62,311 nt of DNA from an uncultured Bacilli bacterium. GTDB taxonomy: Bacteria; Bacillota_I; Bacilli_A; RF39; UBA660. The DNA lies in NCBI GenBank assembly GCA_934149325.1, contig CAKPEJ010000004.1, positions 1 through 62,311 of the forward strand, written 5' to 3'. Numbering within the stretch: the stretch's first letter is position 1; every line of letters starts with the position of its first letter. Below are positions 42,022 through 61,202 of this stretch, one piece after another. Both the position numbers and the translations under genes were made by a program. The notes below the pieces were generated by a model that saw only the letters and a list, made by a program, of their open reading frames with translations, was not told the DNA's origin and did not search any database.

Positions 42022-42123
42022 AAAAAAAGAAACTGCCCCCCTGAAGAACAGTTTCGTAAAAAAGAATAAAAAGGGGTTGGCTAGTGTGATACTAGCAGCC
42101 AATTCGCCATTTGGGAATTGGTG
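42022..42123 (-). ncRNA. Candidate small RNA (minus strand) with its own promoter and terminator(s)
   Basis: On the minus strand: TTGACA (42158-42153), 17-nt spacer, TAATAT (42135-42130). Hairpins follow: CCAATTC/GAATTGG and GCTAGT/ACTAGC, then CCCCTTTTT. The terminal hairpin GAAACTG/CAGTTTC (42055-42029) is followed by U7. Confidence 0.3.
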
Positions 42124-42218
42124 ACATATATATTACTGATAAAAGGGTGTTTTGTCAAGTACTTTTTAAAAAATATGTTATAATATTTTTAAATTAATAA
42201 AAAAAGAGGTGATTTAAT

Positions 42219-44177
42219 ATGCAAATAGATAAAATAAAAGGTGTTGGACCAAAATCTGTAATTCTACTTAATAAATTAAATATATATACTAAAGAAGATT
42301 TAGTAACATTTTATCCGTTTAGATATGAGATAATTAAAAGAACCTCTTTATATAATGATAAAGCTATAGTACCTGTAAAAATTGTTTCAACACCCGTACT
42401 AAATTACTTTAAAAAAATGAATAGATTAAGTTTTAAGGCTGAATCGGATAATAAATTAATAAATGTTGTTATATTTAATAGAGGATTTTTAAAAAATAGT
42501 TTATATGTTGGAAATGTAGTAACAATTATTGGAAAGTACGAAGAAGAAAAAAATACTTTTTTAGCATCAGATATAAAATTAGAAGATATAAATAATAAAG
42601 TAAAAATAGAGCCAATATATCATTTAGTAAAAGGTCTTACAAATAAAAGTATAAATAAATTTATTATGAATGCTTTAGATGAAGAAATAATAGATTATAT
42701 ACCAAATGAATTAATTGATAAATATAACTTTATGAGTAAAAAGGATGCTTTAAAACATATTCATTTTCCTTTTAATAATATTAAATTAAAAGAAGCTATA
42801 ATTAGATGTAAATATGAAGAATTATTTTTATTCATGCTTAAAATAGAAGCATTAAAGAGAAAAAATAATGAATATAATATTGGATATTCAAAAAATATAG
42901 ATAAAGATAAGATAAATGAATTTATAAATAGTTTAAGTTTTAGTCTTACTAATGATCAATTAAAAGTATTAGATGAAATATATAGTGATTTAGAAAGCGA
43001 AAAAAGAATGAATAGATTAATAGAAGGTGATGTTGGTTCAGGTAAAACAATAATATCAATGATTAGTATGTATATATTATATTTGAATAATTATCAAAGT
43101 GCTTTAATGGCACCTACTGAAATACTTGCAAAACAACATTATGAAAATGCTGTTAAATTATTTGAAAATTATGATATTAATATTTGCTTACTTATTGGTA
43201 GTATGACTAAAAAAGAAAAAGAAAGTATAAAAAAGAAAATAGAAGATGGGTATTATAATATAATTATAGGTACACATACTTTAGTGCAAGATGATATTAA
43301 TTATAATAATTTAGGTCTTGTAATAACAGATGAGCAACATAGATTTGGTGTTAATCAAAGAAATAATTTAAGAACAAAAGGAAATATGCCAGATGTACTT
43401 TATATGAGCGCAACACCAATACCTAGGACATATGCTTTAACTATATATGGTGATATGGATATATCTATAATTAAAGAAGTTCCAAAAGGTAGAAAAAAGG
43501 TTATTACCAAAGTAAAAAATAATAGTGAAATAAAAGATGTTTTAAAAAGTATTAATAATGAGTTAAAACTTGGTCATCAAATATATGTAGTATCTCCTTT
43601 AATAGAAAATGCAGTAGATGATAAAGAAGATATAGATAAGTTATATAAAAAATTTATTCTTGCTTTTAAAAATTATAATATAGGTATATTACATGGAAAA
43701 ATGTCTTCAAAAGAAAAAGATGAAGTAATGAATGATTTTACAAATAAAAAAATAGATATATTAATAAGTACAACTGTAATAGAAGTTGGTGTTGATGTAT
43801 ATAACGCTACCATGATAGTTATATTTGATTCATATAATTTTGGACTTGCAACACTTCATCAGTTAAGAGGTAGAGTAGGAAGAAATGATTTTCAGTCATA
43901 TTGTATTTTAGTAACAGATAGACAAACCGAAAGATTAAAAATAATGGAAAATACTACAGATGGGTTTGTTCTTGCAGAAGAAGATTTTAAATTAAGAGGC
44001 TATGGTGATTTATTTGGTACTAAACAAAGTGGTGATATGACATTTAAACTAGCTAATTTAACTAAAGATTATAAAATGCTTTTAGAAGTAAAAAAAGATG
44101 TTAGTTATATTTTAGATAATATTAATGATTATGATATGTTAAAAGGTATATTAAAAAATTCTATAAATATGGATTAA
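42219..44177 (+). CDS. recG: ATP-dependent DNA helicase RecG
   Basis: Wedge/OB N-terminus, GDVGSGKT, TDEQHRFG, and QLRGRVGR. Confidence 0.93.
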   Translation: MQIDKIKGVGPKSVILLNKLNIYTKEDLVTFYPFRYEIIKRTSLYNDKAIVPVKIVSTPVLNYFKKMNRLSFKAESDNKLINVVIFNRGFLKNSLYVGNVVTIIGKYEEEKNTFLASDIKLEDINNKVKIEPIYHLVKGLTNKSINKFIMNALDEEIIDYIPNELIDKYNFMSKKDALKHIHFPFNNIKLKEAIIRCKYEELFLFMLKIEALKRKNNEYNIGYSKNIDKDKINEFINSLSFSLTNDQLKVLDEIYSDLESEKRMNRLIEGDVGSGKTIISMISMYILYLNNYQSALMAPTEILAKQHYENAVKLFENYDINICLLIGSMTKKEKESIKKKIEDGYYNIIIGTHTLVQDDINYNNLGLVITDEQHRFGVNQRNNLRTKGNMPDVLYMSATPIPRTYALTIYGDMDISIIKEVPKGRKKVITKVKNNSEIKDVLKSINNELKLGHQIYVVSPLIENAVDDKEDIDKLYKKFILAFKNYNIGILHGKMSSKEKDEVMNDFTNKKIDILISTTVIEVGVDVYNATMIVIFDSYNFGLATLHQLRGRVGRNDFQSYCILVTDRQTERLKIMENTTDGFVLAEEDFKLRGYGDLFGTKQSGDMTFKLANLTKDYKMLLEVKKDVSYILDNINDYDMLKGILKNSINMD

Positions 44178-44183
44178 AAGTAA

Positions 44184-44212
44184 TTGACTTTTTAATTAAA
44201 ATACTTTATTAT
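44184..44212 (+). promoter_or_regulatory. Sigma-A-type promoter of the candidate sRNA
   Basis: TTGACT (44184-44189), 17-nt spacer, TATTAT (44207-44212). Confidence 0.5.
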
Positions 44213-44218
44213 TAATAT

Positions 44219-44310
44219 AGCGTGACAATCTGTCACGTAACACTTTTACGGATTATAGTGAAAGTGTAACCAAAACCCCCTGAAGAGGAATCGAAAGATT
44301 CCTCATTTTT
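44219..44310 (+). ncRNA. Candidate C-rich small RNA; its 3' end is the integration site of the islands
   Basis: Hairpins CGTGACA/TGTCACG (44221-44237) and ACACTTT/AAAGTGT (44240-44267). Unpaired AACCAAAACCCCCUGAA. Terminator GAGGAATC-GAAA-GATTCCTC plus a T-run (44285-44310). No ORF. Confidence 0.4.
44276..44310 (+). repeat. att-like repeat, copy 1 (attL of the IME and 3' end of the sRNA candidate)
   Basis: CCCCCTGAAGAGGAATCGAAAGATTCCTCATTTTT. Confidence 0.7.
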
Positions 44311-44378
44311 GTTTTTTGCTTGAAATTACAAGGGTTTGTTAATTTTAAATTTTATAAATTAATGCTTTCAACTACCAA

Positions 44379-45530
44379 TTAACTACCAAAATCTACCATT
44401 GTAGCATCAGTACAAGTTAGTTTATTTATGGTATTTACAGCATCATAAAGTTTATCTTTGAACATATGAGTATAAGTATCTAAAGTTTCTTCGATTGAAG
44501 CATGACCTAAGAAATCAGATACAACTGCTATATTAGTATTATTATTAATTAATAGTGATGCACAACTATGCCTAAAGTCGTGTAATCTTATTCTTTTAAT
44601 ATTAGCTTTTTTAGCAATTTCAATATTCTTATGCCTCATTTGATAGAATGTTATAGGAAGATAATTTCCAAATATAAACCATTCATCGTTAAATTCAGCA
44701 AATTGCTTTTGCTCATCATATAGCTTTTTTAAATCATTAAATAATACATTAGCAATAGGTAATATCCTATTACTTTTTTTAGTTCTTGGCTGTGTTAATT
44801 CATAATTTGTACAAGTTTCAGATCCATGTGTAACAGCTTGTTTTGTAATAGATACTGATTTATTATTCCAATTAATATCTTTCCATTGTAAGCCTCTAGC
44901 TTCACCTCTACGAAGTCCTAGATAATATAAAGTTTCATACATACATTTAATTTGTAAGTTAGGGGATTCTGATATAAATTGATTAAATTCTTCTAAAGTA
45001 TAGAAATCCATTTCTTTCTTTAAATCAGATGCTGTAGTAAAACTTTCCATTCTGCTATAAAATTTACTCATATTGAAACCATAAGTCTTAGTTGCCCAAT
45101 TAATTACAATCTTTAAGAATTTTTGAATTTCATTTTTATAACTATTTGAACAATCTACTTTCATCATTTCAGCTCTCCATCTTTGATAATGAGTAGCATC
45201 CATATCTTTTAATTTAACTTTATCAAACATTCCAATATATTTAATTCTATCTCGATAAGTCTTTAAAGTTGACCATCTTACTATATTTTTTTGAACTTCG
45301 TAATATTTTGTGTACAAATCTTTGAAGGTCATATTCATATCTCCTTCAAATACTTCAGCCATTTTTAAATATTCTTTTTCAGCACGTTTTGCTTCTGCCT
45401 CAGTTTTATATGCTTTGGAAAACTTTTTGTGTTTTTTACTATCTAAACCTGTTTCCCAAATATACCATATATATTTACGACCATCTTTAGTCCATTTGCT
45501 TTCTTCTAATAGTCTAACTGCAATTTTCAT
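44379..45530 (-). CDS. int: Site-specific tyrosine integrase
   Basis: LGLRRGEARGL (R), RLHDFRHSCASLL (H-x-x-R), FLGHASIEETLDTYTHMF (H, Y). Confidence 0.92.
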   Translation of the reverse strand: MKIAVRLLEESKWTKDGRKYIWYIWETGLDSKKHKKFSKAYKTEAEAKRAEKEYLKMAEVFEGDMNMTFKDLYTKYYEVQKNIVRWSTLKTYRDRIKYIGMFDKVKLKDMDATHYQRWRAEMMKVDCSNSYKNEIQKFLKIVINWATKTYGFNMSKFYSRMESFTTASDLKKEMDFYTLEEFNQFISESPNLQIKCMYETLYYLGLRRGEARGLQWKDINWNNKSVSITKQAVTHGSETCTNYELTQPRTKKSNRILPIANVLFNDLKKLYDEQKQFAEFNDEWFIFGNYLPITFYQMRHKNIEIAKKANIKRIRLHDFRHSCASLLINNNTNIAVVSDFLGHASIEETLDTYTHMFKDKLYDAVNTINKLTCTDATMVDFGS

Positions 45531-45618
45531 TCCTCCTTTGCTTAGATTAGACTATTCACGCACTTCAGTTGGTAGTTTACCATATTTAATTATTTTTTCC
45601 AACTGAAGTGCGATAGTT

Positions 45619-49082: not shown

Positions 49083-49880
49083 ATGATTTTAGTGAATAAT
49101 GAAAAGTTAAATAATTTAAACTCTATTTCTGTAAATGATTTATATATTTTGACTGATTTTGATGGAACAATTACTAAGGATAATAGTGATAGTTCTTGGG
49201 CAAGTATTTTTAAAAATCCTAAAGTTACAAAAGAATTTATTGATGAATGTATAAGAATATTTAGTCATTATCATAAATTTGAAATTGATGAGTCATTATC
49301 AATTGAAGAAAAAATGCCAATCATGAGTGAATGGTATAGAAAAAATATAGAAACATTAATTAATTTTGGTATTACAGAAGAAATTATAAACTATGCTGCT
49401 AATAACGAAAGTATTATGGCTTTTCGAGATGGAGCAATTGATTTTTTGAAGACAATGTATGAAAAAAATATTCCTATTATAGTAATATCAGCAGGTGTTG
49501 GTAATATTATTGAACAATTTTTAATTAGAAATAATTGCAATTATTCAAATATTTATATTTGTTCTAATTTCTTGGAATATGAAAAAGGCATAGTTAAAGG
49601 AGTTAGAGATAATAATTTAACTCATCCATTAAATAAAAATGAAGTATTTTTACCATCAAATATTAAAAGTAAAATTATAGGCAGAAATAATATTTTACTT
49701 CTTGGCAATAGTGTTTTAGATATAAATATGGCAGGTACTAATAGAAATGTTTATAAATTGGGTTTTTTAGATGAAAAAATAGAAGAAAGATTAGAATATT
49801 TTAAAGAAAACTACGATATAGTTTGTACAGATAATACTTCTTATGATGAAATACGAAGTAAAATAAAAATTCTAAATTAG
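49083..49880 (+). CDS. HAD-superfamily pyrimidine 5'-nucleotidase, UMPH-1/NT5C3-like
   Basis: LTDFDGTIT, EEKMPIMSEWYRKN, VISAGVGNIIE, SNF, NILLLGNSVLDINMA, KLGFL and YDIV are collinear with eukaryotic cytosolic 5'-nucleotidase III motifs. Confidence 0.6.
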   Translation: MILVNNEKLNNLNSISVNDLYILTDFDGTITKDNSDSSWASIFKNPKVTKEFIDECIRIFSHYHKFEIDESLSIEEKMPIMSEWYRKNIETLINFGITEEIINYAANNESIMAFRDGAIDFLKTMYEKNIPIIVISAGVGNIIEQFLIRNNCNYSNIYICSNFLEYEKGIVKGVRDNNLTHPLNKNEVFLPSNIKSKIIGRNNILLLGNSVLDINMAGTNRNVYKLGFLDEKIEERLEYFKENYDIVCTDNTSYDEIRSKIKILN

Positions 49881-49894
49881 GTCGTGGTGATATA

Positions 49895-50581
49895 ATGAAA
49901 AAAGAGTCCTTTGATAAATTATTAAAGACTATGTCTAAATGTGATAAATGCACTAATTTTAAATGTAAAGAGAAGTCATTGATAAATATTTATAATGATT
50001 ATAACTTTAGTTCAAATATACCATCTATATGGACTGATTGGTTTAATAGACTAGATTCCAAGATTATGATTATAGGTCAAGACTGGGGGCCTTATAATGA
50101 TATGAAAAAACTAAATAATTTGTTAAAAGAAGATAAAAGTAATTGGAATGAATTAATTGAGTCAGAAAAAAGTAATACCAAAAAAATATTAGAAAAATAT
50201 ATAAAAGAATCTTCTAACAGTAGGTATTCGTTAAATGATATATTTATAACAAATGCAATAATGTGTGCAAGACAGGGAGATAATTATAGAGGAAATAATA
50301 TTGATTTAAAAAAATCTACTCTAAAATGTAGTGATTTCTTATTAAAACAAATCGAGATAGTAAAGCCAAAAGTAATATTAACTTTAGGATATTATCCATT
50401 ATTATCTTTATCTAACTTATTAAATTTTGATATAGAAAGAACACTAAAGGAAACTATTAGAAAATATCCTGAAATAAATAAAGATGATTATGTTATTATT
50501 CCTTTATATCACCCAGTAGCACAAATTAAAAAGGCTGAACAGTTAGTGCAATATAAAAAAATATGGAATTATATTGATTAA
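49895..50581 (+). CDS. Uracil-DNA glycosylase superfamily protein (divergent)
   Basis: N-terminal Cys cluster CDKCTNFKC, motif A-like IMIIGQDWGP, FITNAIMCAR, and motif B-like PLYHPVAQ. Confidence 0.6.
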   Translation: MKKESFDKLLKTMSKCDKCTNFKCKEKSLINIYNDYNFSSNIPSIWTDWFNRLDSKIMIIGQDWGPYNDMKKLNNLLKEDKSNWNELIESEKSNTKKILEKYIKESSNSRYSLNDIFITNAIMCARQGDNYRGNNIDLKKSTLKCSDFLLKQIEIVKPKVILTLGYYPLLSLSNLLNFDIERTLKETIRKYPEINKDDYVIIPLYHPVAQIKKAEQLVQYKKIWNYID

Positions 50582-50602
50582 AAATAAGGAGAACGTTATT
50601 AT

Positions 50603-50995
50603 ATGAAAGTATTAAGTTTAACTGAACCATACGCAACTTTAATTAAAAATGGTATTAAAACAATAGAAACTAGAAGTTGGAAAACTAATTATAGAGGTAA
50701 ATTATACATTCATGCAAGTTCAACAAAAATTCCAAAAGAATATAAAAATAATAAAGAGTTGATAGATTTAGTTGATATTAATTGTTTAAATTATGGAAAC
50801 ATAATTTGCTCTTGTGAATTAATTGATTGTATTGAAATGACAGAAGAATTTATAGAAAAAATGAAGAAAAATAAAAATGAATATATAACAGGTATTTATG
50901 CTGTTGGAAGATATGCATGGATATTAAAAGATATAAAAGTATTAGACAAACCTATTAAAGCCAAAGGATATTTAGGTATTTGGAATTTTGATTAA
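50603..50995 (+). CDS. ASCH-domain protein
   Basis: VLSLTEPYATLIKNGIKTIETRSW and the size (130 aa) fit the ASCH/PUA-like fold. Confidence 0.65.
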   Translation: MKVLSLTEPYATLIKNGIKTIETRSWKTNYRGKLYIHASSTKIPKEYKNNKELIDLVDINCLNYGNIICSCELIDCIEMTEEFIEKMKKNKNEYITGIYAVGRYAWILKDIKVLDKPIKAKGYLGIWNFD

Positions 50996-51057
50996 ATAAT
51001 AATTACGGCTTGATGATAACCATATACAATTGATTTTAAAAAGGAGATGTGAAATAA

Positions 51058-51366
51058 ATGAAGATAATAACAGTGTGTGGTAGTTTGAAATTTGTTAATG
51101 AAATGATGGAAATAACAGAAAAAATGGAACTAGAAGGTAATTGTATGTTAGTACCTATATATAATCCATCAAAAACTAGCAAAGATGACTTTACTGAAGA
51201 AGAAGCATTAATGCTTGATAAAATGCATAAAGAAAGAATAAAACTATCTGATGCTATTTTAGTTGTAAATGTTAATGATTATATAGGTAGTAGCACTAAA
51301 AGTGAAATCGAGTTTGCTAAATCATTAAATAAAGAAATAATGTATTATACTGATTTAATAAAATAA
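51058..51366 (+). CDS. Small Rossmann-like protein, possibly of the nucleoside 2-deoxyribosyltransferase/Rcl (DNPH1) family
   Basis: IITVCGSLKF...DAILVVN...GSSTKSEIEFA resembles the NDT/Rcl pattern. This is a weak, motif-only call. Confidence 0.35.
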   Translation: MKIITVCGSLKFVNEMMEITEKMELEGNCMLVPIYNPSKTSKDDFTEEEALMLDKMHKERIKLSDAILVVNVNDYIGSSTKSEIEFAKSLNKEIMYYTDLIK

Positions 51367-51388
51367 TTTTTAACAACAAAGGTGAAGT

Positions 51389-52273
51389 ATGACTAATTTT
51401 TTAAAATGGTTAAGTATTTTATCTACTCGAGAGTGGGCTACAATAATTTGGATTTTGATTTTATCAGTATATGTATTAATTAATAAGAAAACAAGATATT
51501 CTGCCCTAGACGTTATTAAAATATTATTTGGAAAGAATTTAATAAAAATATGGATAATAACTTCTTTATATGTGATTTTAATAACATTATTATTTTCTAA
51601 AACGTCAATATGGGATAATTGTTACATAAAGGATATTATTATATGGTATATAACATCAGGAGTAATATTTTGTTTTAATGCAGCATCTAGGGAATCTGAT
51701 GAACAATATATTTGGAAAGTATTAAAAGATAATTTAAAGTTTACAATTGTTATAGAGTTTTTTTATAGTACATTTACATTTAAACTTTGGGTTGAGTTAC
51801 TAATTATTCCTATTATTACATTCTTAGCAATGGTAGATGCTGTTGCTGAAAGAAAAGAAGAATACAAAATTGTACATAAGTTTATGCAAACAATATTTGT
51901 AATTATTAGTATTTGGTTCTTTTATGAAACTTTTAAACTTGGATTAAGAGAGTATAAAGAATTAAATGTTTTGAATACTTTTATAAGTTTCATGATTCCA
52001 ATTGTATATTTAATATTAATTATACCATTAGAATATTTAATAGAGTTGTATTCAAAATATGAAGTACTATTTATTAGAATATTTTTTAAAAATAATAAGG
52101 ATAAAAAAGCAACTAGAAAAAGGAAAATATTAATAATTAAAAATTGTGGTTTATCAGTGCATAATGTGATGTTATTCCAAAAAAAATACTGTAGTAGAAT
52201 ATATGTAAAAATGTCTGATGATGAATTTATAGCATTAATAAATGAGTTTAAAGAAGAAAAAATGACAAAATGA
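51389..52273 (+). CDS. Polytopic membrane protein, function unknown
   Basis: Six or seven hydrophobic helices followed by a soluble C-terminal region of about 70 aa. It is the last cargo gene. Confidence 0.6.
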   Translation: MTNFLKWLSILSTREWATIIWILILSVYVLINKKTRYSALDVIKILFGKNLIKIWIITSLYVILITLLFSKTSIWDNCYIKDIIIWYITSGVIFCFNAASRESDEQYIWKVLKDNLKFTIVIEFFYSTFTFKLWVELLIIPIITFLAMVDAVAERKEEYKIVHKFMQTIFVIISIWFFYETFKLGLREYKELNVLNTFISFMIPIVYLILIIPLEYLIELYSKYEVLFIRIFFKNNKDKKATRKRKILIIKNCGLSVHNVMLFQKKYCSRIYVKMSDDEFIALINEFKEEKMTK

Positions 52274-52315: not shown

Positions 52316-52475
52316 AAAAAAGGTAGTTAAGAAATATCTCAACTACCTTTTCAACTACCAAGAATTTAAAATTCTTATAATATTTAGTTATTTTATTTAC
52401 TTTTAAATCCTTTTAAATAAACGCAAAAGTATTTATATAAACTTTGAAGTACGTGAATTCTAACCGCCCCCTGAA

Positions 52476-52507
52476 GAGAGCGAAAGCTCTCATTTTTATT
52501 TTAAAAA
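52476..52507 (+). repeat. att-like repeat, copy 2 (attR of the IME / left junction of the decayed island)
   Basis: GCCCCCTGAAGAGAGCGAAAGCTCTCATTTTT is identical over 32 nt to 61008-61039. Confidence 0.75.
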
Positions 52508-52577
52508 GGAAAATAAATTAACATTATAAACATAGAAAAATATCTTTATTTCATGTATAATAAATTATGGTGATATT

Positions 52578-53160
52578 ATGAGAATCGGAATAGATATTGA
52601 TGACACCATGACTGATATAAAAGAAAAGTTAACAAAAGCTACAATAAAATATGCTAAAAGTTTAAATAAAGATATACAAAATATTGATAATAATGATATT
52701 GTTGATATATATAACAATGGGAATATTTATCAATAACTATTTAATTTTAATCGTGAAGAATTAAAGTATTTTTAGGGCCAATACAAGAAGAAATAACTAA
52801 TAATGCTGTTCTAAGAGAAAATTGTGCTAAAGTAATAAATGACTTACATAAAGATGGACAGGAAATTTATATAGTTACTGCGAGAGATAATGAATTTCAT
52901 AATGATCCGTATTTATATAGTAAAGTATGGCTTGAAAAAATAAAATTTACTATGATAAATTAATTGTTAATGCCAGAGATAAAAGGATAACCTGTTTAGA
53001 AAATGATATTTCTTTATTAATTGATGACAATATAAGTAATTGTTTGAACGTGATTAATGTAGGAATTGATACAATAATTATTGGAAATAAAAATAATAAT
53101 ACAATAAAAATTGTTGATAATTGACAATAAATATATGATTATATTAAAAATGATTTATAG
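52578..53160 (+). pseudogene. Disrupted HAD-family 5'(3')-deoxyribonucleotidase (NT5C-like) gene
   Basis: MRIGIDIDDTMTD..., then ...EIYIVTARDNEF..., ...KLIVNARDK...LLIDDNISN... lie in three different frames with premature stops and a TGA where the conserved W is expected. Confidence 0.7.
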
Positions 53161-53438
53161 CAATATTTTGGTCAATTTTTATATCTACAACATATGAAAA
53201 TATTTGTGATGCAGTATATATAAATATACTTGAAAATAGATATCAATTAAGTTTTTCAAATATGTGTCATATTATAAGATTTTTAGGAGAATCAATAGGG
53301 GTGTTTCTTTGTGGAACGATGTATGAGATCGGATTAAAATATATGTTTGGATTGTCAGCATTGTTTATGGTGTTTCAAATTAGTATAGCTTATTATTTAA
53401 TAATTTTAAGGAAGAAAGAGGCGATTATCAATGAGTAG
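53154..53438 (+). pseudogene. 3' fragment of a transporter (MFS-like) gene
   Basis: A 94-codon open frame without a start: FIAIFWSIFIS...GESIGVFLCGTMYEIGLKYMFGLSALFMVFQISIAYYLIIL. Only two or three C-terminal TM helices remain. Confidence 0.5.
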
Positions 53439-53967
53439 AATTACCTTAATAACAAAATTCAAAGAAAAAGAACTAAATAAAATAAATAATCAACTAAAGA
53501 ATATTCATTATCATATGTGTAAAGTACCTTATGGGATTGATGATGAATTGAGAAATGAAATTGATAATTTACCATATCATTTTACAATATTTGCTACTGA
53601 TAAACAAAATGAAAGTAAGTTATTGAATATTGCTAGTGATATAAAAATGAATAAAATAAAATTAAAAATTAACGATATAAGAATAATGAATGGGCGAAAT
53701 AATAGTTTTGTATTATACTTTTCCATAGAAGAAAATAAAGATATAAAAGAATTACAAAAAAAATTCTTTTTACAAATTCCTGGAGAGAATTATGATCCAG
53801 ATAAATTTACTTTTCATATGACATTACATATTGATAAAGATGAAGAATTAGTTAATAAAATAAAGGAAGAGATAGAATTTAATTTTAAACCATTTAGGCT
53901 CGTATTTGATGAATTAGTTTTATATGACTATCCTGGAGATATGATTAAAGAAATTAGTATAAAATAG
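53431..53967 (+). CDS. 2H phosphoesterase superfamily protein (LigT / 2'-5' RNA ligase / cyclic phosphodiesterase-like)
   Basis: Two H-x-T-x motifs at the expected spacing: PYHFTIFA and FTFHMTLHI. Confidence 0.6.
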   Translation: MSRITLITKFKEKELNKINNQLKNIHYHMCKVPYGIDDELRNEIDNLPYHFTIFATDKQNESKLLNIASDIKMNKIKLKINDIRIMNGRNNSFVLYFSIEENKDIKELQKKFFLQIPGENYDPDKFTFHMTLHIDKDEELVNKIKEEIEFNFKPFRLVFDELVLYDYPGDMIKEISIK

Positions 53968-53981
53968 TATAATAAGAAAAA

Positions 53982-54042
53982 ATGACACAGTGACACTATA
54001 GATGAGAGTGGGGTATGCATAATCAATGTGTCACAGTGTCAT
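53982..54042. repeat. Palindromic element, copy 2
   Basis: ATGACACAGTGACAC (53982-53996) pairs with GTGTCACAGTGTCAT (54028-54042), 14/15 complementary. Confidence 0.6.
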
Positions 54043-54078
54043 ATAATGTATTATTATAAATATTATTTAAAGTAGTGC

Positions 54079-54333
54079 TTGTTAATAAAGAAAAAATATT
54101 ATACAAGACTTAATAATACAATTGATTTGATAGATAAAGTAATTTATATTTTAAAATCAAAAAATATAAAAGTTGATTATGACATGAAATATTTTATAAA
54201 AAATGAAGAATTTATTAATTTAGTTTATAATGAATTAAACAACAAAAATTATACAATTAAAAAACCGATGACATGGTCATTAGAATTAAATGAAAAAGCA
54301 GATATAAACGAATTATACAAAAATGATGGTTAA
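54079..54333 (+). CDS. Hypothetical small protein (TTG start, weak)
   Basis: ORF only. There is no clear RBS. Confidence 0.3.
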   Translation: MLIKKKYYTRLNNTIDLIDKVIYILKSKNIKVDYDMKYFIKNEEFINLVYNELNNKNYTIKKPMTWSLELNEKADINELYKNDG

Positions 54334-54601
54334 AATCAACCCTTGATAATATATCGCTATTTGGTGTGGATATTACACTAAAAACTAACGAAATGGTAAT
54401 GTATAATTGTTCTATAAAGGAGATTATTGGTAAAGATAAAAATAAAAAAGTAAAATTTGAATCTAGTCATATTGAATTTATATTAACAAATAATGAATGA
54501 TTATTAATTTTAGGTGGTATTTTTTTAAATAAATATTCAATTTATTGTTAAATACATATTTTTTTATGATACAATATATAACTACAAAGAGAGGATTTGT
54601 T

Positions 54602-54865
54602 ATGTATAATGCTGTAATAGATAATGGAAGCACATATTTATTTTTAGATAATGGTAATGATGATGTTTATAGTGGTGATATGTCTGGATTCTTAGTTAAT
54701 AACAGCAATATAATTAATTTAATGGATGCTTTACCAATTAAACAATACTATTTAAGAACAAAAGAAAATATTAGAACTAAAATATCTAAAGAACAAGCAT
54801 ATTATTTATATCAACAACTTATAGATTATAACAATAAGAAAGAAAATATAAATAAATCATTATAA
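54602..54865 (+). CDS. Hypothetical small protein
   Basis: The ATG at 54602 follows AGAGAGGA. No motif recognised. Confidence 0.45.
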   Translation: MYNAVIDNGSTYLFLDNGNDDVYSGDMSGFLVNNSNIINLMDALPIKQYYLRTKENIRTKISKEQAYYLYQQLIDYNNKKENINKSL

Positions 54866-55012
54866 AATTGAAATTATTTATTCATTAGATTGATAATTAT
54901 AATATAAAACAAAATTATTATATACTGATAAATGTGATAATAAAATAATTTCAATATCTTTGATCAGTTAAATATTTGAATTTACTATAACAAATTTGAA
55001 ATAATTGATTTA

Positions 55013-55090
55013 ATGAAAGATATTGAATATGGGTGGATTGACAAAAAAATAATAAACATAAAGTTGTAGATGAAACATATCATCTCTTAA
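55013..55090 (+). pseudogene. Truncated 5' gene fragment (MKDIEYGWIDKK...)
   Basis: A short ORF is broken in an A-run and then runs into the degenerate att copy. Confidence 0.3.
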
Positions 55091-55115
55091 AGAGAGAGAA
55101 AGCTCTCGTTTTTTG
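55083..55115 (+). repeat. Degenerate att-like repeat, copy 3
   Basis: TCTCTTAAAGAGAGAGAAAGCTCTCGTTTTTT retains the GAAAGCTCTC core, the hairpin and the T-run. Confidence 0.5.
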
Positions 55116-55120
55116 TATTT

Positions 55121-55350
55121 AAAGTTTTTTAGTTATTTTATATATGTATTAAATACCTATTTTAATTTAGAAATTTCATATAATGCTTCCATATCTTTGA
55201 TTAATACCTTTGATATAGGAATATTTATTATACTAAATTTTGTTTTAAGTATAGTTACCACATAAGGTTTATTTTTATCGTAAATACTGTCATTTTATTT
55301 AAAAAATTAAAAAATAGTATTATAATAAATAATTAATAAATGAATTTAGG
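55121..55350 (+). repeat. Cassette upstream region, copy 1 (two blocks shared with 58788-58890)
   Basis: 55121-55159 vs 58788-58826 match at 38/39. 55288-55350 vs 58828-58890 match at about 54/63. About 128 nt are present only in copy 1. Confidence 0.75.
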
Positions 55351-55361
55351 AGGGCGTAGTA

Positions 55362-55963
55362 TGTATAGTGAAGATGCTTATTGCTTAGGATTATTATATG
55401 CACATATATATGCAGATAAAAAAATGGTATTAAAAGATGATTTGGATAAATTCCATGAAATTATTGAATTTAATTTAAGAAGTATGAATAATGATATTAA
55501 TGATACTTATACTACTGTTTGTCATGATAATGATCCTAGTATATATTTTGAAAGTGAAGGAAAAAATGGTGAAATATATTATGTTTTATATCCTGATTTT
55601 GATTTAGCTAAAGCTAAGTCAAAATATATAGGATGTTTATCTACTGATGTATTAGTTGCTTCTCAAAAAGAAAATGCGTTAAATTCAATAGATTTAAAAG
55701 AAGAAAACGGAAGAATCGTTAAGAAAAAACCAAATGAATTGCGAATATCTAATTATGACTTTTTAAAAAATGCAGAAGTTTGTGAGATTACACGTAGTGA
55801 AGATCATAAGCAACTTCAAAAAACTGCTAATAGAAGAATTGAGGAAGGTAGACGTAGAGAAGCAAAGGCTTGGCATGATGCTAAAAATTTTTGCGTTGGA
55901 ACAAGCACAGTTGATATTGAAATAGAACAAGGATTATCTTTAAAGAAAGTGAAAAATGATTAG
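55362..55963 (+). CDS. Hypothetical protein P1 (paralogue of P2; EQG-tail)
   Basis: The ATG at 55362 follows AGGAGGG. It is collinear with P2 and ends ...IEIEQGLSLKKVKND. Confidence 0.55.
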
Positions 55964-55974
55964 GAGGATTAGTT

Positions 55975-56568
55975 ATGGCAGTATGTTATGAAGAGGCAGC
56001 TATTATGGCTTTAATAAAAAGCTATATAAGTACAAGTAATAAAATCTTGACTTATGAAAGTGTTAAAAATTTTGAAAAGGAATTAAACAAAAAACTAGAT
56101 GAATTTGGTCATAGAGGAACAGGTTATTTTAAAGAAAGTGATAGAGAAAAATTTTTTTACTCACGTGATGAATATGGAAATGGATATTTAGTATTAAATT
56201 CTAATTTGGAATTAGATGATTTGTCAATGACTGAAATTATGACATATCCACTAGAATATTTAAAGGCATTAGATTCATATGAAGTATTAAAGACAATTAA
56301 TCTTATTAAAGTTGATGGAAAAATAGTTTCTAGAAGTAAATATTATAAGAATTTGGCAGAAAAATATGATTTAAAACAAGTGTTATCAGTAGAAAGACCA
56401 AAGTTTAATATTTTTGAAGATTGGGAAAAAGTTGGAGAAGATGGTTTTATAGAAAATTATTGCTTATCTGATGCTGAAAAAATGATATTACAAGAATTAA
56501 GAAAAACAAAAACATCAGAAACAGAACAAGGACCTATATTAAAAAAAACAATAAAGTATGAATATTAA
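55975..56568 (+). CDS. Hypothetical protein P2 (paralogue of P1; EQGP-tail)
   Basis: The RBS AGGAGG lies 6 nt upstream. It ends ...TSETEQGPILKKTIKYEY. Confidence 0.55.
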   Translation: MAVCYEEAAIMALIKSYISTSNKILTYESVKNFEKELNKKLDEFGHRGTGYFKESDREKFFYSRDEYGNGYLVLNSNLELDDLSMTEIMTYPLEYLKALDSYEVLKTINLIKVDGKIVSRSKYYKNLAEKYDLKQVLSVERPKFNIFEDWEKVGEDGFIENYCLSDAEKMILQELRKTKTSETEQGPILKKTIKYEY

Positions 56569-56646
56569 CTTTTGAGAAATTTATAACTTATAAATACGAT
56601 GGGATTTAATAGAAATAAAAAATATAATAATGAAAGGTAAAATAAT

Positions 56647-57441
56647 ATGAATAATAGAGAGAGTGCTGTTGTAGTTAGTAATGGTAATAAAAATGTAAGT
56701 GTGATAGAAACAATAAATGCAATAAAAAATGCAGGATTTAAAAATGTTTTTATACAGTGGTACAATAATAAAGAATGGAGTCCTACACAAGAGGAGCAAC
56801 TAAAACTAATTAGAGAAAAAGGTTTAAATGTTATATTTGCACATTTGGGATATCAAGATATAAATAATTTATGGGTAGAAGATGCTATTGGTGATAAACT
56901 GGTTGATAGATATAAAAATGATATAAGAGTTTGCAAGGATAACGATATTCCAATGGTTATTATGCATTTAACAAGTAAGAGTAAGGCCCCACAATATAAT
57001 GAAAGAGGTTTGAAAAGGTTGCAAGAAATAGTAGATTATGCTGAATCACTAAATATAAAAGTCGCTTTTGAAAATACAAAGATAAAAGGTTATTTAGATT
57101 ATGTTATAAAAAATATTAATAATAAAAATGTTGGTATATGTTTTGACTCCGGGCATTATCACGTTCATTTTAATGATGAATTAGATTTTTCTAGTTTTAA
57201 AAATAGAATATTTGCAGTACATTTTCATGATAATGATAAGAGTGATGATTTACATCTTCTACCATTTGATGGAACTTTAGATTGGGAAAATGTTATAAAA
57301 AAATTGAAAGAATGTAATTATAATGGACCAATAACAATGGAACTTTGTTATCGATATGAATATTTAAAAATGGGAATAGATGAATTTTATAAAAAGGGTT
57401 ATGAAATTGGGATTCAATTAAAAGAAATGTTTGAGAGGTAA
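56647..57441 (+). CDS. Xylose-isomerase-like TIM-barrel protein (sugar phosphate isomerase/epimerase or AP-endonuclease-2 family)
   Basis: VAFENTK, GICFDSGHYHV, HFHDNDKSDDLHLLPFDGTLDW and ITMEL. Confidence 0.75.
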   Translation: MNNRESAVVVSNGNKNVSVIETINAIKNAGFKNVFIQWYNNKEWSPTQEEQLKLIREKGLNVIFAHLGYQDINNLWVEDAIGDKLVDRYKNDIRVCKDNDIPMVIMHLTSKSKAPQYNERGLKRLQEIVDYAESLNIKVAFENTKIKGYLDYVIKNINNKNVGICFDSGHYHVHFNDELDFSSFKNRIFAVHFHDNDKSDDLHLLPFDGTLDWENVIKKLKECNYNGPITMELCYRYEYLKMGIDEFYKKGYEIGIQLKEMFER

Positions 57442-57447
57442 AAGTTT

Positions 57448-57963
57448 ATGGAATTAATACAAATAGTAGATAAAGATGGTAATTTTATTGGTGAAGTAAT
57501 GGATAAGGAAGAAGCACATGATAAAAATTTATTACATAATGAAGTTGCAGCCTTTGTTATAAATGATAATAGGCAAGTTTTACTTCAAAAAAGAAGTAAA
57601 AATAAAAGATTCAACCCTAATAAATGGGCATTATGTGCTGGACATGTTGATGCTTATGAAAGTTTGGAAACTGCAATTTTAAGAGAAATTAAAGAAGAAA
57701 TTGGTATTGATGTAAATCCTAATGAATTAATATCTTTTGGTGAAAGGGAATTTGTAATTAAAGACATAAATTCACATATTACTTATTTTTATTGTATTAA
57801 GTCAAACTTAAATGAAGAGGATTTTATTATTCAAGAGGAAGAATTATCAGAAGTAAAATGGTTTGATATAGAAAATGTTATAGAAATGATAAAATCAGGG
57901 GATGAGTCTCTTGTGTTTAGCAAAGAAAGATTAAAACTTTTTGAACAATTAAAAAATATATAA
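57448..57963 (+). CDS. NUDIX hydrolase
   Basis: Nudix box GHVDAYESLETAILREIKEEIGI. Confidence 0.85.
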   Translation: MELIQIVDKDGNFIGEVMDKEEAHDKNLLHNEVAAFVINDNRQVLLQKRSKNKRFNPNKWALCAGHVDAYESLETAILREIKEEIGIDVNPNELISFGEREFVIKDINSHITYFYCIKSNLNEEDFIIQEEELSEVKWFDIENVIEMIKSGDESLVFSKERLKLFEQLKNI

Positions 57964-57992
57964 AAATTGTAGTAATAGAAAGGTAAAATCTA

Positions 57993-58769
57993 ATGAAAAA
58001 ATTAAGTGAACTTAAATTAAAAGATAAAAAGTATATTATTTTTGATATTGATGGAACATTAATTGATTCTATTGGAGTTTGGAATAGAACTGATCAAAAA
58101 TTGATTGAAGAGTTTGGAAAAGTATCCAAAAACTTAGATGATATACAATCTGAAAGAGATGACTTTCTTCATAATAATCAAGATGGTGATATTTACTTAG
58201 CATATTGCGAATATCTAATTAAAAAATATAACTTTAGTATTAGAGACGCACAGACTTTACTTAAAATAAGATGGGATAAATCGAGCGAAATCTTAAAAAA
58301 TGAGATGGATTTTAAATCATATGTTGTTGAACTTATATTAATGTTGAAAGATTTAGGGTTTACTTTAGTATTAGCAACAATGACAACACAAGTTCAATTA
58401 GATATTTATTCTAAAAAGAATAAAAGAATGCTAGAACAAATGAACATAGTAGAGGTTTTTGATTTGATTACTAGAAAAGAAGATGTAAAAAATAAAAAAC
58501 CAAATCCTGAAATATATAATAAAATAATGCAATATTATAATGCATCACCAAATGAATGTCTAATATTTGAAGATTCTTATACAGGTGTATTGGCAGGCAA
58601 GAATGCAGGTATTGAAGTAATAAATATTTACGATAAATATGCTGATTTAGATAGAAAAAAAATTAATGAAGTAACTGATTATAGTATTGAAGGATATCAA
58701 GAATTTATTGAATTAGTAAATTCGTTATATCCAATTGAATCTAAAATGGTACTAAAGCTAAAAAAATAA
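57993..58769 (+). CDS. HAD-IA family hydrolase (phosphatase / beta-phosphoglucomutase-like)
   Basis: IIFDIDGTLIDS, KKPNPEIY, and FEDSYTGVLAGKNAG. Confidence 0.85.
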   Translation: MKKLSELKLKDKKYIIFDIDGTLIDSIGVWNRTDQKLIEEFGKVSKNLDDIQSERDDFLHNNQDGDIYLAYCEYLIKKYNFSIRDAQTLLKIRWDKSSEILKNEMDFKSYVVELILMLKDLGFTLVLATMTTQVQLDIYSKKNKRMLEQMNIVEVFDLITRKEDVKNKKPNPEIYNKIMQYYNASPNECLIFEDSYTGVLAGKNAGIEVINIYDKYADLDRKKINEVTDYSIEGYQEFIELVNSLYPIESKMVLKLKK

Positions 58770-58787
58770 AAAGTATATTTTAGAGAT

Positions 58788-58890
58788 TAAAGTTTTTTAG
58801 TTATTTTATATATGTATTAGATACCCAACTGTCATTTTATGTAAAAAAAGAAAAAAAAGTGTTATAATAGATAACAAATATATGAATTTA
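58788..58890 (+). repeat. Cassette upstream region, copy 2
   Basis: See 55121-55350. Confidence 0.75.
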
Positions 58891-58899
58891 TTTAATGGT

Positions 58900-59085
58900 A
58901 AATAAGAAAATGACTATCAAACATTTTCTTGTGGTAATACAAAAGTTACATTTGATAATAATTGATATATTGTAAAGGCTAAGGTATTCACATCTATTAT
59001 GTGGTGGTAAACCAAATCATGATGAAAAACAAGAACAACCTAAAAGTATGAGTTTAACTAGAAAAAGAAAGCAGGTATCAAAATG
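58900..59085 (+). pseudogene. Possible frameshifted small zinc-ribbon gene with a basic tail
   Basis: ...FSCGNTKVTFDNN* in one frame and ...LLCGGKPNHDEKQEQPKSMSLTRKRKQVSK* in another. The tail resembles the EQGP tails. Confidence 0.3.
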
Positions 59086-60039
59086 AAAATAACTAATAAT
59101 ACAAATACAGAAGAAGTAAAAGTTACAATGAAAAATGCATTAAATGATATGTGTAGTACAGAAAGTAGTTTTGAAAAAAGTACAACTGGTGAAGAGATAA
59201 GAAAAATAATGCGAATTAAAACATCTAGTGTTGCATTTAATGAACAAGATTTTATAAAATTACTTCTATCTAAATTATTAAAAAATGGGATATCAAAAAT
59301 AGATCCGATGAAATTAAAATATTTGTTAGCTGATTATTATTCAAAGGAAGAATATGCATTTTTATTTGAAGATTTAGCATTAAAAGAACAAATTGAAGGA
59401 AATTATGTAGAATTCGATGATGCTTTAGTGTTTGCACATTTTGCTGGATTGTTAAGTAATCCTATACAAGGTACAAATATGCGCATGATATTGTCATCTC
59501 TTGAAGATGTTTCATCTAATTATTCAACAGAATATAACTTAAAAATGGATGAATTAGCTCATAATCTATCAAGTAGACTTAATATAAAGAATAATTTAAT
59601 AAATCAAAGTCAAGATAGTCGAGAAGCAGTATCTAAACAAGATGAAATAGAAAAAGAACTATATGAAGTTAGAGTATTTAATGAAGATGATAGAAAAAAT
59701 AATGAATCTTGTAAATTAGAACAACATAAAGCTTTACTATATATAGATGATGTATCTGAAAAATATTCAAATGATATGGAAAATAATGTTTATTATGAAT
59801 GCATATGTTTAGAATGTGGTAAACATAAAGATTATAAAATGTCTTTGAATGATAGAAGACATATAATAAAAACTAATTTATCGCCTATGGAAACTTTCAT
59901 GTCATTTTATGAAGTAAGAAAAAGATATTTAGAATTAATAAAACAAAATTGTACAGTAGAAGAAATAATTGATAATTTGAATTCTTTTTATAAAAAGAAT
60001 CAGGAACAAGGACCGGTATTAACAAAAAAGAAAAACTAA
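59083..60039 (+). CDS. Hypothetical protein P3 (internal CxxC; EQGP-tail)
   Basis: It ends ...KKNQEQGPVLTKKKN and contains CICLECGKHK. No other motif was recognised. Confidence 0.55.
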   Translation: MKITNNTNTEEVKVTMKNALNDMCSTESSFEKSTTGEEIRKIMRIKTSSVAFNEQDFIKLLLSKLLKNGISKIDPMKLKYLLADYYSKEEYAFLFEDLALKEQIEGNYVEFDDALVFAHFAGLLSNPIQGTNMRMILSSLEDVSSNYSTEYNLKMDELAHNLSSRLNIKNNLINQSQDSREAVSKQDEIEKELYEVRVFNEDDRKNNESCKLEQHKALLYIDDVSEKYSNDMENNVYYECICLECGKHKDYKMSLNDRRHIIKTNLSPMETFMSFYEVRKRYLELIKQNCTVEEIIDNLNSFYKKNQEQGPVLTKKKN

Positions 60040-60150
60040 TTCTAGTTTAAGATTTTCATTAATTTTAAATTTTAGAGGGTTTGGGTTTTTCCCATATTGA
60101 ATTTGTCGGGAGGACAAATTCAGGGCTGGCTAAAACAATAATTTTAATAA

Positions 60151-60183
60151 AATAAGCATTAGTTTTTTTCACTAATGCTTATT
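60151..60183. terminator. Bidirectional terminator between convergent genes
   Basis: 13-bp stem AATAAGCATTAGT / ACTAATGCTTATT, flanked by A/T runs. Confidence 0.65.
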
Positions 60184-60492
60184 ATTTTTTTCAAAAATTA
60201 ATGGGTTATCATTCTTAATTTTTAAATTATATTTTATTAAAAGTATTTCTTTGATTTTTGGTATCATATCATCTATTGATTCTTGATAACAACACAGCAT
60301 ATCAAATGTAGAATTAATATGATTATATAGAGGAGAATCACATAAACAATCTTTATAGAAACAATCTTTCAAATAAAATGCAACTGCTTCTGGAATGATA
60401 AAATTTACCATATATTTTTTAAAATTATTATCTATTGGAACAATTCTATTAAAGAATTCTTCATCTAATACATCTTTACCGTTTAGAATCAT
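60172..60492 (-). CDS. Hypothetical protein (Cys-rich), co-transcribed with tnpV
   Basis: Its start overlaps the tnpV stop by 4 nt. Confidence 0.5.
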   Translation of the reverse strand: MILNGKDVLDEEFFNRIVPIDNNFKKYMVNFIIPEAVAFYLKDCFYKDCLCDSPLYNHINSTFDMLCCYQESIDDMIPKIKEILLIKYNLKIKNDNPLIFEKNNKH

Positions 60493-60842
60493 ATATAAAT
60501 ATCTTCTTTCAAAATAACTTCATCAACAACATTTTTATAATTATTCATAAGTTTGATCCATTCCATTTGATTATTCATTTTATTTTTTTCAGATAGTTTT
60601 TTATCTTTTTTCTTGTAGTTATTCATCATAGTTTCAAATTTTATATTACATTCATTACTTACCGAAGAAAGATAGTCAGTAAGTTGATTATTCATTAGTA
60701 GGTTTCTATATAATTGTTTTTTATGTTTTTTTATATAATTTAGTTTTAATAATCCATATCTATTGATACTATTTGTGGTAGATGTAGTAATACCTAATTT
60801 AGGTATTAAATAATCGCCTTTTTTAATATAATTAATTTTCAT
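60489..60842 (-). CDS. tnpV: TnpV-like transposon-associated protein
   Basis: MKINYIKKGDYLIPKL...RYGLLKLNYIKKHKK..Y..L..N.L..YL...QMEWIKLMNNYKNVVDEVILKEDIYI is collinear with TnpV of Tn4451-type elements. Confidence 0.6.
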   Translation of the reverse strand: MKINYIKKGDYLIPKLGITTSTTNSINRYGLLKLNYIKKHKKQLYRNLLMNNQLTDYLSSVSNECNIKFETMMNNYKKKDKKLSEKNKMNNQMEWIKLMNNYKNVVDEVILKEDIYI

Positions 60843-61007
60843 ACTTTTTTCCTTTCTTTGAAATAGTAATTTTAGGTACCCATTTAGGTACTAAATTATT
60901 AAAATAGACTAATTATTATTAAATTTATTTAATTATTAATAAATGATTCTTGCTTTAAAATAAAGGATTTAATCAAATGTGATTTAAAAATATACTAATT
61001 AAATTTT

Positions 61008-61039
61008 GCCCCCTGAAGAGAGCGAAAGCTCTCATTTTT
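61008..61039 (+). repeat. att-like repeat, copy 4 (rightmost junction)
   Basis: GCCCCCTGAAGAGAGCGAAAGCTCTCATTTTT. The following TTTTGCTTGAA also matches the flank of copy 1 (44311-44325). Confidence 0.75.
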
Positions 61040-61202
61040 TTGCTTGAATTTAAAAAAATTAGAGTATAAACATAAATAAATTTGTATAAGTTTGATAAAA
61101 ATTATTAATTTTGGTATCTAAGTGTTACTTTTTAATTAAAATACCACAATTAATTGACTTTTGTGGCAAATTACTTTAAAATTATATCAAGAGGTGATTA
61201 AA

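Follow-up and report, generated by a model that had tools for sequence, protein, structure and literature searches.

A conserved candidate small RNA gene downstream of recG and its use as an integration site by mobilizable elements in uncultured gut Bacilli

Introduction

The DNA considered here, a stretch of 62,311 nucleotides (nt) from contig CAKPEJ010000004.1 of an uncultured Bacilli bacterium (GenBank assembly GCA_934149325.1; the whole stretch is hereafter called the window), contains a unit of about 90 nt between recG and the integrase gene of a genomic island. The locus raises two questions: whether this unit is a functional small RNA gene, and whether its DNA is the site at which islands enter the chromosome. 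An earlier interpretation made from the letters of the window (the sequence-only reading) had proposed both, with a C-rich RNA that works on the principle of RsaE/RoxS-type RNAs as the product. Here, the unit, designated sRNA-1, was compared with its homologues in related genomes. We class it as a small RNA gene of the trans-acting type at which mobile elements integrate. Our overall reading, to which we give a probability of about 0.78, is that sRNA-1 is a real small RNA gene, that it is the attachment (att) site of elements that bring their own terminators, and that it probably acts by base-pairing through a run of five C residues (C5), with a second small RNA, sRNA-2, as the best candidate partner. 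The source genome measures 1.09 Mb in 39 contigs and has a G+C content of 24%.

Results

A sigma-70-type promoter was found immediately downstream of recG at 44184..44212 on the plus strand, as the sequence-only reading had described, with TTGACT (44184-44189) separated by a 17-nt spacer from TATTAT (44207-44212). The sRNA-1 gene follows at 44218..44310 (+), as delimited by its predicted fold and by a match to the covariance model described below (44218-44308). The RNA is predicted to form two hairpins, P1 (44220-44238, in which 44220-44227 pairs with 44231-44238) and P2 (44240-44267, in which 44240-44249 pairs with 44258-44267), followed by the unpaired stretch AACCAAAACCCCCUGAA (44268-44284) and by the intrinsic terminator GAGGAAUC-GAAA-GAUUCCUC (44285-44304) with its U5 tract (44306-44310). 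The minimum free energy of the 100 nt at 44213-44312 was -35.5 kcal/mol, compared with -14.4 +/- 3.0 kcal/mol in dinucleotide shuffles (z = -6.98), and this fold energy was matched by 0 of 200 shuffles. No open reading frame (ORF) of 40 or more amino acids was detected inside the unit. The possession of its own promoter and its own intrinsic terminator, together with the lack of an ORF, is what marks a small RNA gene, and the two hairpins and unpaired C-rich stretch were present as had been proposed.

When relatives were searched by BLAST with the 133-nt unit, about 20 further genera of this family proved to have homologues. These homologues shared a layout in which TTGAC(A/T)-17-TAnnAT leads into a hairpin whose sequence varies and then into a second one, CACUCUUACG...GUGAGAGUG, after which the block (U)CAACCAAAACCCCCUGAAG precedes a terminator that is again variable; the nearly invariant unpaired block of the family is (U)CAACCAAAACCCCCUGAA. 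The exact 18-mer AACCAAAACCCCCTGAAG was matched by at least 120 contigs (one genome per species). Nearly all of the matches listed were gut metagenome-assembled genomes (MAGs) labelled Bacilli, Tenericutes, Mycoplasma or Erysipelotrichaceae, and Clostridium sp. CAG:302 was included. Because this organism is among the matches, and CAG-302 belongs to order RF39 (PMC7676259), the clade that carries sRNA-1, the source genome included, is probably RF39.

The covariance model, whose construction had been suggested by the sequence-only reading, was built from nine sequences. Within the order, it recovered sRNA-1 in 249 of 301 genomes and in 114 of 127 genera, and most of these genomes have one copy. 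In a class-wide sample, the model matched this family only, with 0 matches in about 180 genomes from other families. As far as these genome sequences tell, sRNA-1 is restricted to one family plus its sister family of small-genome, AT-rich gut Bacilli.

Unaided folding produced P1, P2 and the terminator in 111 of 112 distinct sRNA-1 sequences, and in 110 of 111 the terminator began at the base directly after ...CUGAA. When 100 sequences were aligned with the model, standard pairs filled 96.1% of cells, compared with 31-51% after the partners had been slid by 1-3 columns; a point to be held against these pair counts is that the alignment was fitted to the covariance model, which favours structure. 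Changes on both sides were seen in 21 of 22 pairs, for a total of 473 compensatory cells, and 0 of 500 shuffles reached the observed score. Compensation of this kind in P1, P2 and the terminator thus argues for selection on the folded RNA.

The position of sRNA-1 allows an alternative explanation, namely that the unit is a structured 3' untranslated region (UTR) and terminator of recG, that a short RNA would arise only by read-through or processing, that the promoter hexamers are unused, and that the conserved property is recG mRNA stability. The recG stop codon at 44177 lies 6 nt before the -35 hexamer, no terminator belonging to recG was found, and the synteny is conserved, with recG directly upstream of sRNA-1 in most loci. 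However, 99 of 133 homologous loci have TTGAC[AT]-N16-18-TAnn[AT]T at the equivalent place, and in 90 of them the spacer measures 17 nt, so that a near-consensus promoter stands at the right distance despite diverged surroundings. In addition, the RNA and its promoter are still present in loci where recG ends 750-950 nt upstream with an intervening gene or is not adjacent at all. We therefore regard the recG 3' UTR explanation as highly improbable. Collectively, these comparative data support, with high confidence, the identification of sRNA-1 as a real small RNA gene that would be transcribed independently of recG.

The DNA downstream of sRNA-1 was then examined for the junctions of the islands. 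The att core CCCCCTGAAGAG, which forms the left junction (attL), lies within the 3' part of sRNA-1 (44276..44287, +), and the same 12-mer is repeated at 52467-52478 and 61009-61020. The core shared across the junctions, 10-12 bp long, is CCCCCTGAAG(AG); a longer repeat, CCCCCTGAAGAGAGCGAAAGCTCTC, was found at 52467 and 61009, and a degraded copy at 55082-55115. The first two cores enclose an 8.2-kb integrative and mobilizable element (IME), designated IME-1, with a tyrosine integrase gene (44379..45530, -; Pfam Phage_integrase, 1.4e-25, and Phage_int_SAM_3) that is convergent with sRNA-1. The sequence-only reading had placed an integrase gene on the opposite strand downstream of the RNA, which was correct, and its start 69 nt away, which was not, as it is the stop codon that lies 68 nt after the U-tract. 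IME-1 thus has the arrangement that identifies an attachment site, in which an integrase gene adjoins one junction and a short core is directly repeated at both.

Besides the integrase, IME-1 encodes on the minus strand a MobV-type relaxase (45619-47031; Pfam Mob_Pre), an AAA_25 ATPase (47178-48134; Pfam AAA_25) and a small ORF without a Pfam match (48138-48374), and on the plus strand an XRE repressor (48540-49064; Pfam HTH_3). The remainder is cargo (49083..52273, +), which includes UMPH-1/HAD and UDG genes according to gene calls in the identical contig L191. No type IV secretion module was seen in IME-1, as judged from the element size and the ORF list only. Within each end of the element there are arm repeats of the CAACTACC type (44369-44389 and 52340-52359). 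The left end carries CAACTACCAA (44369-44378, +) followed by TAACTACCAA (44380-44389, +), and the right end (52322..52359, +) carries CAACTACC at 52340-52347 and 52352-52359 with an inverted GGTAGTTA at 52322-52329.

The second att copy (52467..52497, +) is both the right junction of IME-1 and the left junction of a second island, and consists of CCCCCTGAAG, the terminator GAGAGC-GAAA-GCTCTC and T5; the covariance model matched weakly at 52425-52497. The third copy (61009..61041, +) has the same GAGAGC-GAAA-GCTCTC terminator and a weak model match at 60948-61039. Between them lies DNA of one or more decayed, integrase-less islands (52498..61008), which contains the degraded att copy, a TnpV gene (60489-60842) and TAGGTAC arm repeats (60873-60891); no integrase ORF was found within 52498-61008. 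Since the core recurs at 44276, 52467 and 61009 and the integrase-less remnant has arm repeats of another kind, the region is best described as a tandem array of one intact element plus relics. Serial integration gave rise to this array, in which IME-1 (44276-52478) is intact and the remnants behind it, up to 61009, have no integrase.

Two further observations concern the extent of this array. Contig C21 (positions 1-330) begins with 55 nt equal to 60964-61018, that is, the right arm of island 2 and the core, and continues with another terminator, GGACCC-TTTTT-GGGTCC, and CAACTACC repeats. As C21 is a branch of the assembly graph at the att core, the contig does not show the full complexity, and at least one more element is present in the array or the population. 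Past the third att copy, 61161-62311 holds an ORF without a Pfam match and an AbiEii toxin gene that runs off the end of the contig. Directly behind the third terminator, 17 nt (TTTTTTGCTTGAATTTA) resemble the integrase-proximal arm of IME-1, and this end of the contig is therefore possibly another remnant and not chromosomal flank.

Use of the same site was also evident in other genomes. Homologues of the integrase with 41-74% identity were found in convergent orientation at the same position in at least 26 other loci, and 68 of 109 loci have a tandem 7-10-nt repeat within the first 170 nt downstream of the terminator, compared with 39 of 420 control windows. By this last measure, the site is occupied in about 60% of more than 100 species, spanning more than 100 genera. 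The proposal that sRNA-1 is an island attachment site was thus upheld by the core repeats, by the integrase-bearing element, by the convergent integrases elsewhere and by a second island at the identical junction in the same species, described below. Together, these comparisons indicate with high confidence that the DNA of the 3' part of sRNA-1 serves as the chromosomal attachment site for diverse mobilizable elements with tyrosine integrases.

To locate the boundary between host and element, contigs of the same species from other samples were compared with the window. Among contigs encoding an identical RecG, one carried IME-1 (L191), two carried a different island and one ended at the core. 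The same-species contigs were identical through ...AACCAAAACCCCCTGAAG, that is, up to ...CCCCCUGAAG, and the occupied ones split at the next base, with GAGGAATC... in one and GGAGTCCTTGTGGCTCC... in the other. The divergence thus falls exactly after GAAG. The one that ended at the core, L193, breaks exactly at CCCCCTGAA; as evidence for excision or integration, the assembly breaks at the core in L193 and C21 are suggestive only. Because the divergence directly follows the core, the junction between host and element coincides with the end of the unpaired block, and the terminator belongs to the element. In the window, the 3' end supplied by the element comprises the terminator GAGGAATC-GAAA-GATTCCTC plus the arm (44285..44378, +), within which the integrase-proximal arm, 3' of the terminator, contains TTGAAATTACAAGGGTTTG.

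The different island in the same species was seen at the same site in L192 (8153-10463), which was obtained from another sample. It encodes a 371-amino-acid integrase and an AAA_25/DnaB_C-like protein and carries TAGGTACCC repeats, a type also found at the right end of the island-2 remnant in the window (60873-60891).

Comparison across genera gave a similar picture, in that the terminator sequence went with the type of island arm and not with the host. An arm similar to that of IME-1 was found at three loci in other genera, where a terminator beginning GAGTCAGC is followed by CAACTACC repeats. As another example, GAGAGCATTTAACCGTGCTCTC always precedes ATGCCCATTTTATAAGGGTTTG...TAGGTACAATTTAGGTACA, in genera that differ in P1 and P2. 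In about 25 apparently island-free loci, ordinary genes follow directly and the terminators are individual to each locus. The sequence-only reading had attributed the difference between the terminator in sRNA-1 and the other copies to compensatory changes. This was not borne out, as the 8-bp GAGGAAUC stem and the 6-bp GAGAGC stem are modules from different DNA. Its broader claim, that the element supplies a replacement 3' end, was confirmed in that the terminator type tracks the island and the same-species sequences diverge exactly after GAAG.

These findings give a model of integration in which everything 3' of GAAG in the occupied copy, namely the terminator stem-loop, the U-tract and the integrase-proximal arm with its tandem 8-10-nt repeats, comes from the element, and the native-type terminator GAGAGC-GAAA-GCUCUC is displaced to the far junction. 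As each element carries its own terminator, sRNA-1 is always rebuilt with a working one. Some results tell against this model: no island-free contig of the same species turned up when metagenome contigs were scanned for an exact 38-mer, the look-up of identical RecG sequences gave occupied or truncated sites only and no empty one, and the native terminator of this species is accordingly deduced from the far junction. Nevertheless, provision of the 3' end of sRNA-1 by the element in the occupied copy is supported by the sequence comparisons.

The coincidence of the conserved block with the att core raises the further alternative that the locus is a DNA site only, whether as an integrase target or in another role, with fortuitous hairpins and no functional RNA. 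On the plus DNA strand, the att core at 44276 is repeated directly by CCCCCCTGAAG at 42036-42046, so that the same 10-mer flanks recG in direct orientation, as might be expected of a DNA site. This explanation does not account for the compensatory changes seen in both hairpins and in the terminator, and hosts do not keep sites for the benefit of islands. Further, genomes that appear free of islands retained sRNA-1 intact, with its promoter, both hairpins and a terminator of their own; the sequence-only reading had suggested that island-free relatives be checked for an intact RNA gene. We give a purely DNA-based function almost no credence, and retain the interpretation of sRNA-1 as an RNA gene that doubles as an attachment site.

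The relationship of sRNA-1 to known RNA families was assessed next. No Rfam 15 family was detected at gathering or permissive thresholds in the window, at the locus or in 20 homologous loci, and ARAGORN found 0 tRNA or tmRNA genes in the window. Identity with the signal recognition particle RNA, 6S RNA or RNase P RNA was ruled out by size, by motifs and by the absence of an Rfam match. RsaE/RoxS RNAs of the Bacillales are Hfq-independent RNAs of about 90-115 nt, with hairpins and an unpaired C-rich stretch before the terminator that is proposed to pair with G-rich ribosome-binding regions. The RsaE/RoxS model (RF01820; gathering score, 79 bits) had no match on 44100-44420 at E <= 10 and none at the gathering score in the 20 homologous loci, and membership of sRNA-1 in that family was thus not supported. 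sRNA-1 has one unpaired C5 run directly before the terminator and no second CCCC motif. A search of the literature on RF39, small RNAs and integrases returned nothing relevant, and no small RNA described for the clade was found. The sRNA-1 family therefore appears undescribed, with a founding example that is absent from Rfam.

No Hfq is encoded in the genome, and any pairing by sRNA-1 would therefore be Hfq-independent. Its exposed C5 stretch would base-pair with G-rich partners, and this is the most likely mode of action. Anti-Shine-Dalgarno action, as the sequence-only reading had it, would be one form of such pairing. Our confidence in the mechanism as a whole is low to moderate.

The highest-ranked candidate partner was a second small RNA, sRNA-2 (42022..42158, -), located between the PFOR gene and recG and divergent from recG, to which a predicted duplex at 42059 had pointed. 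Its predicted promoter (TTGACA 42158-42153, TAATAT 42135-42130, -) is followed by two hairpins, by the invariant sequence GCUAGUAUCACACUAGCCAACCCCUUUUUAUUCUU (42096-42062, -) and by a terminator (-) whose stem pairs 42055-42049 with 42035-42029 and whose loop (42048-42036) contains CUUCAGGGGGG. The 35-mer GCUAGUAUCACACUAGYCAACCCCUUUUUAUUCUU was essentially invariant and was detected in 262 of the order's 301 genomes, and the sequence conservation of sRNA-2 is even higher than that of sRNA-1. sRNA-2 is also absent from Rfam; it carries ACCCCUUUUUAUUC before its terminator and scored 20.8 bits with the RsaE model (RF01820), compared with the cut-off of 79.

The terminator stem of sRNA-2 covaries, while its loop keeps YCAGGGGG. 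In 26 of 29 sRNA-2 terminators, 7-11 contiguous bases were complementary to CCCCCUGA(AG) of sRNA-1, and the predicted duplex between the two RNAs had a mean energy of -17.2 kcal/mol, compared with -6.9 kcal/mol for shuffled terminators. The frequency of CAGGGGG in the genome is 4e-6 per position, and the conserved CA before the G-run fits the UG of sRNA-1 and not the CCCCUUUU of sRNA-2 itself. Because the YCAGGGGG loop was the only family-wide conserved complement found, sRNA-2 was ranked as the most likely partner of sRNA-1. We propose, tentatively and with more doubt than conviction, that the two RNAs form a regulatory pair in which the YCAGGGGG loop would kiss CCCCCUGA and one RNA would titrate or gate the other, that they would jointly control G-rich ribosome-binding sites, possibly including that of dnaA, and that islands would insert without disabling the circuit.

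Potential mRNA partners were sought with a genome-wide duplex scan and a scan of translation starts. The first-ranked site was that of dnaA, where UUCAGGCGGGGAGGUGGUUAC precedes the ATG, with a predicted energy of -24.7 kcal/mol compared with a background of -7.0 +/- 2.9 kcal/mol; part of this pairing uses bases located in P2. In 29 other genera, the dnaA start regions averaged -11.9 kcal/mol, compared with -7.0 kcal/mol for 576 background start regions (Mann-Whitney p = 7e-8), and a GGGG-type Shine-Dalgarno sequence was present at dnaA in 16 of 30 cases, compared with 9.5% of the background. A scan of orthologs in three genomes was headed by a membrane-protein gene at 8976, which has a G5 Shine-Dalgarno sequence in all three, followed by mraZ; neither was significant. 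No rRNA-like site was present among the listed genome-wide duplex matches, and one tRNA gave about 8 bp only. Regions with a Shine-Dalgarno sequence of the G4-5 type, such as those of dnaA and the membrane-protein gene at 8976, are weaker candidates than sRNA-2.

Several of these results count against base-pairing as the function of sRNA-1. GGGG-type Shine-Dalgarno sites account for most of the dnaA signal and may have another cause. In the three-genome scan, no target survived correction (best p = 1e-3, 259 triples), and 14-nt complements with up to 2 mismatches were no more frequent family-wide than a reversed-pattern control, save for the gene itself and the extra att copies. With regard to sRNA-2, the G-rich loop is missing in 3 of 29 terminators, the G-run of the loop is partly paired with opposite pyrimidines in the predicted fold, and, as seed and loop never vary, covariation between the two molecules cannot be scored.

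The lack of enriched long complements and of a significant conserved mRNA target is what would be expected if sRNA-1 were a real RNA but no base-pairing regulator, its invariant single strand being a protein-binding or housekeeping site, such as a decoy or scaffold for a nuclease or an RNA-binding protein, and its complementarity incidental. A single strand of about 19 nt that is almost invariant over more than 100 genera, and so exceeds a typical seed of 7-10 nt, also agrees with such a role. However, at 26 of 29 loci the seed of sRNA-1 is matched by the YCAGGGGG loop of sRNA-2, whose stems covary, and the CA of this loop is explained by the UG of sRNA-1 and not by the C-rich stretch of sRNA-2. 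Further, no candidate protein partner was identified. A protein-binding or housekeeping role is thus unlikely, although we consider it less so than the recG 3' UTR and DNA-only explanations, and base-pairing through C5 remains the preferred interpretation.

The sequence-only reading had also noted that the C-rich stretch is exactly complementary over 10 nt to sites at 94-103, 8962-8971 and 23860-23869. These positions were confirmed, as the 10-mer AGGGGGTTTT occurs on the plus strand at 94, 8962 and 23860 and on the minus strand at 44272-44281 (4 matches compared with 0.06 expected); as Shine-Dalgarno targets, the sites at 94 and 23860 did not hold. Genome-wide, 11 of 14 copies of AGGGGGTTTT were part of a stereotyped promoter-like element, TTTTAGGGGGTTTT-N7-8-(A/T)ATCGCG(A/T)ATATAAT, also written TTTTAGGGGGTTTT-N-ATCGCGWATATAAT, in which the G-run lies at about -35, 17 nt upstream of a perfect TATAAT and just after the T-run of the upstream gene. 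These 11 include the copies at 94 and 23860, which, given their place at about -35, are probably not in RNA. Two of the three AGGGGGUUUU sites were thus rejected as sRNA-1 targets, since they lie at about -35 of this element and are not Shine-Dalgarno sequences; of the three, the one at 8962 alone is of that kind (AGAGGGGG-N8-ATG). The gene behind it (8976-10886) encodes a 636-amino-acid membrane-anchored protein with internal repeats, and its G5 Shine-Dalgarno sequence, AGAGGGGGUUUU, is kept as a G5-type sequence in the orthologues of two other genera.

The CGCGWATATAAT part of the promoter-like element was absent from 4 of 5 other genera. The element is therefore lineage-specific and does not explain the family-wide conservation of the sRNA-1 seed, and its co-evolution with seed variants of sRNA-1 was ruled out on the same grounds. 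Copies are located at 90-125 and 23856-23892, with nine more on other contigs, and each is followed by a Shine-Dalgarno sequence and a start codon. The genes behind them look, by their N termini, like dnaG, comEA-like and topA-like genes and genes for ABC exporters and surface or lipoproteins. The element may mark a lineage-specific regulon or may be an unusual -35 or activator site.

Discussion

The integration of islands at the 3' end of tRNA and tmRNA (ssrA) genes provides the closest parallel to the arrangement at sRNA-1. In both cases, a tyrosine integrase gene is adjacent, the 3' part of an RNA gene contains the core, a substitute 3' end is provided and tandem arrays build up at the hotspot. 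In contrast to these sites, sRNA-1 is a family-restricted, regulatory-type small RNA and neither a tRNA nor a tmRNA, and the only part replaced is its terminator hairpin, which is not constrained in sequence. As a result, the terminators of different island lineages can be told apart. In enterobacteria, regulatory small RNA loci, such as ryeA/ryeB (SdsR) of Salmonella, are also integration hotspots. As at sRNA-1, horizontally acquired DNA enters there where a conserved small RNA gene ends; the phylum is different, the RNAs are unrelated, and the sRNA-1 site is used by several lineages of integrases and arm repeats.

IME-1 resembles the IMEs of Firmicutes. In streptococci, IMEs with a tyrosine integrase and a MobV relaxase accrete with integrase-less relics, termed CIMEs. 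The integrase, Mob_Pre relaxase, AAA_25 protein and XRE switch of IME-1 and the tandem, att-bounded, integrase-less remnants follow this pattern. The host clade of IME-1, by contrast, is uncultured and probably RF39, and the target is a small RNA gene instead of a protein-coding or tRNA gene.

In architecture, sRNA-1 is similar to RsaE/RoxS in size, in its hairpins and in the unpaired C-rich stretch directly before an intrinsic terminator, and differs in having one C5 run where RsaE/RoxS have repeated CCCC motifs, as well as in context and taxon. By analogy, sRNA-1 may work like RsaE/RoxS. If the proposed pairing of sRNA-1 and sRNA-2 is true, the two RNAs would tie replication initiation to a signal in genomes of about 1 Mb that lack Hfq.

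For this clade (probably RF39), which is common in human and animal guts, these findings provide a well-supported candidate riboregulator and a second one beside it. Both sRNA-1 and sRNA-2 could enter RNA family databases and be annotated in hundreds of MAGs. The sRNA-1 gene also marks the main integration hotspot of the clade, which pinpoints its mobile elements and explains the recurrent assembly breaks beside recG. Finally, the replacement of the 3' end is unusually clear at this locus, and the lineage-specific terminator tag could be used to trace the exchange of islands between species.

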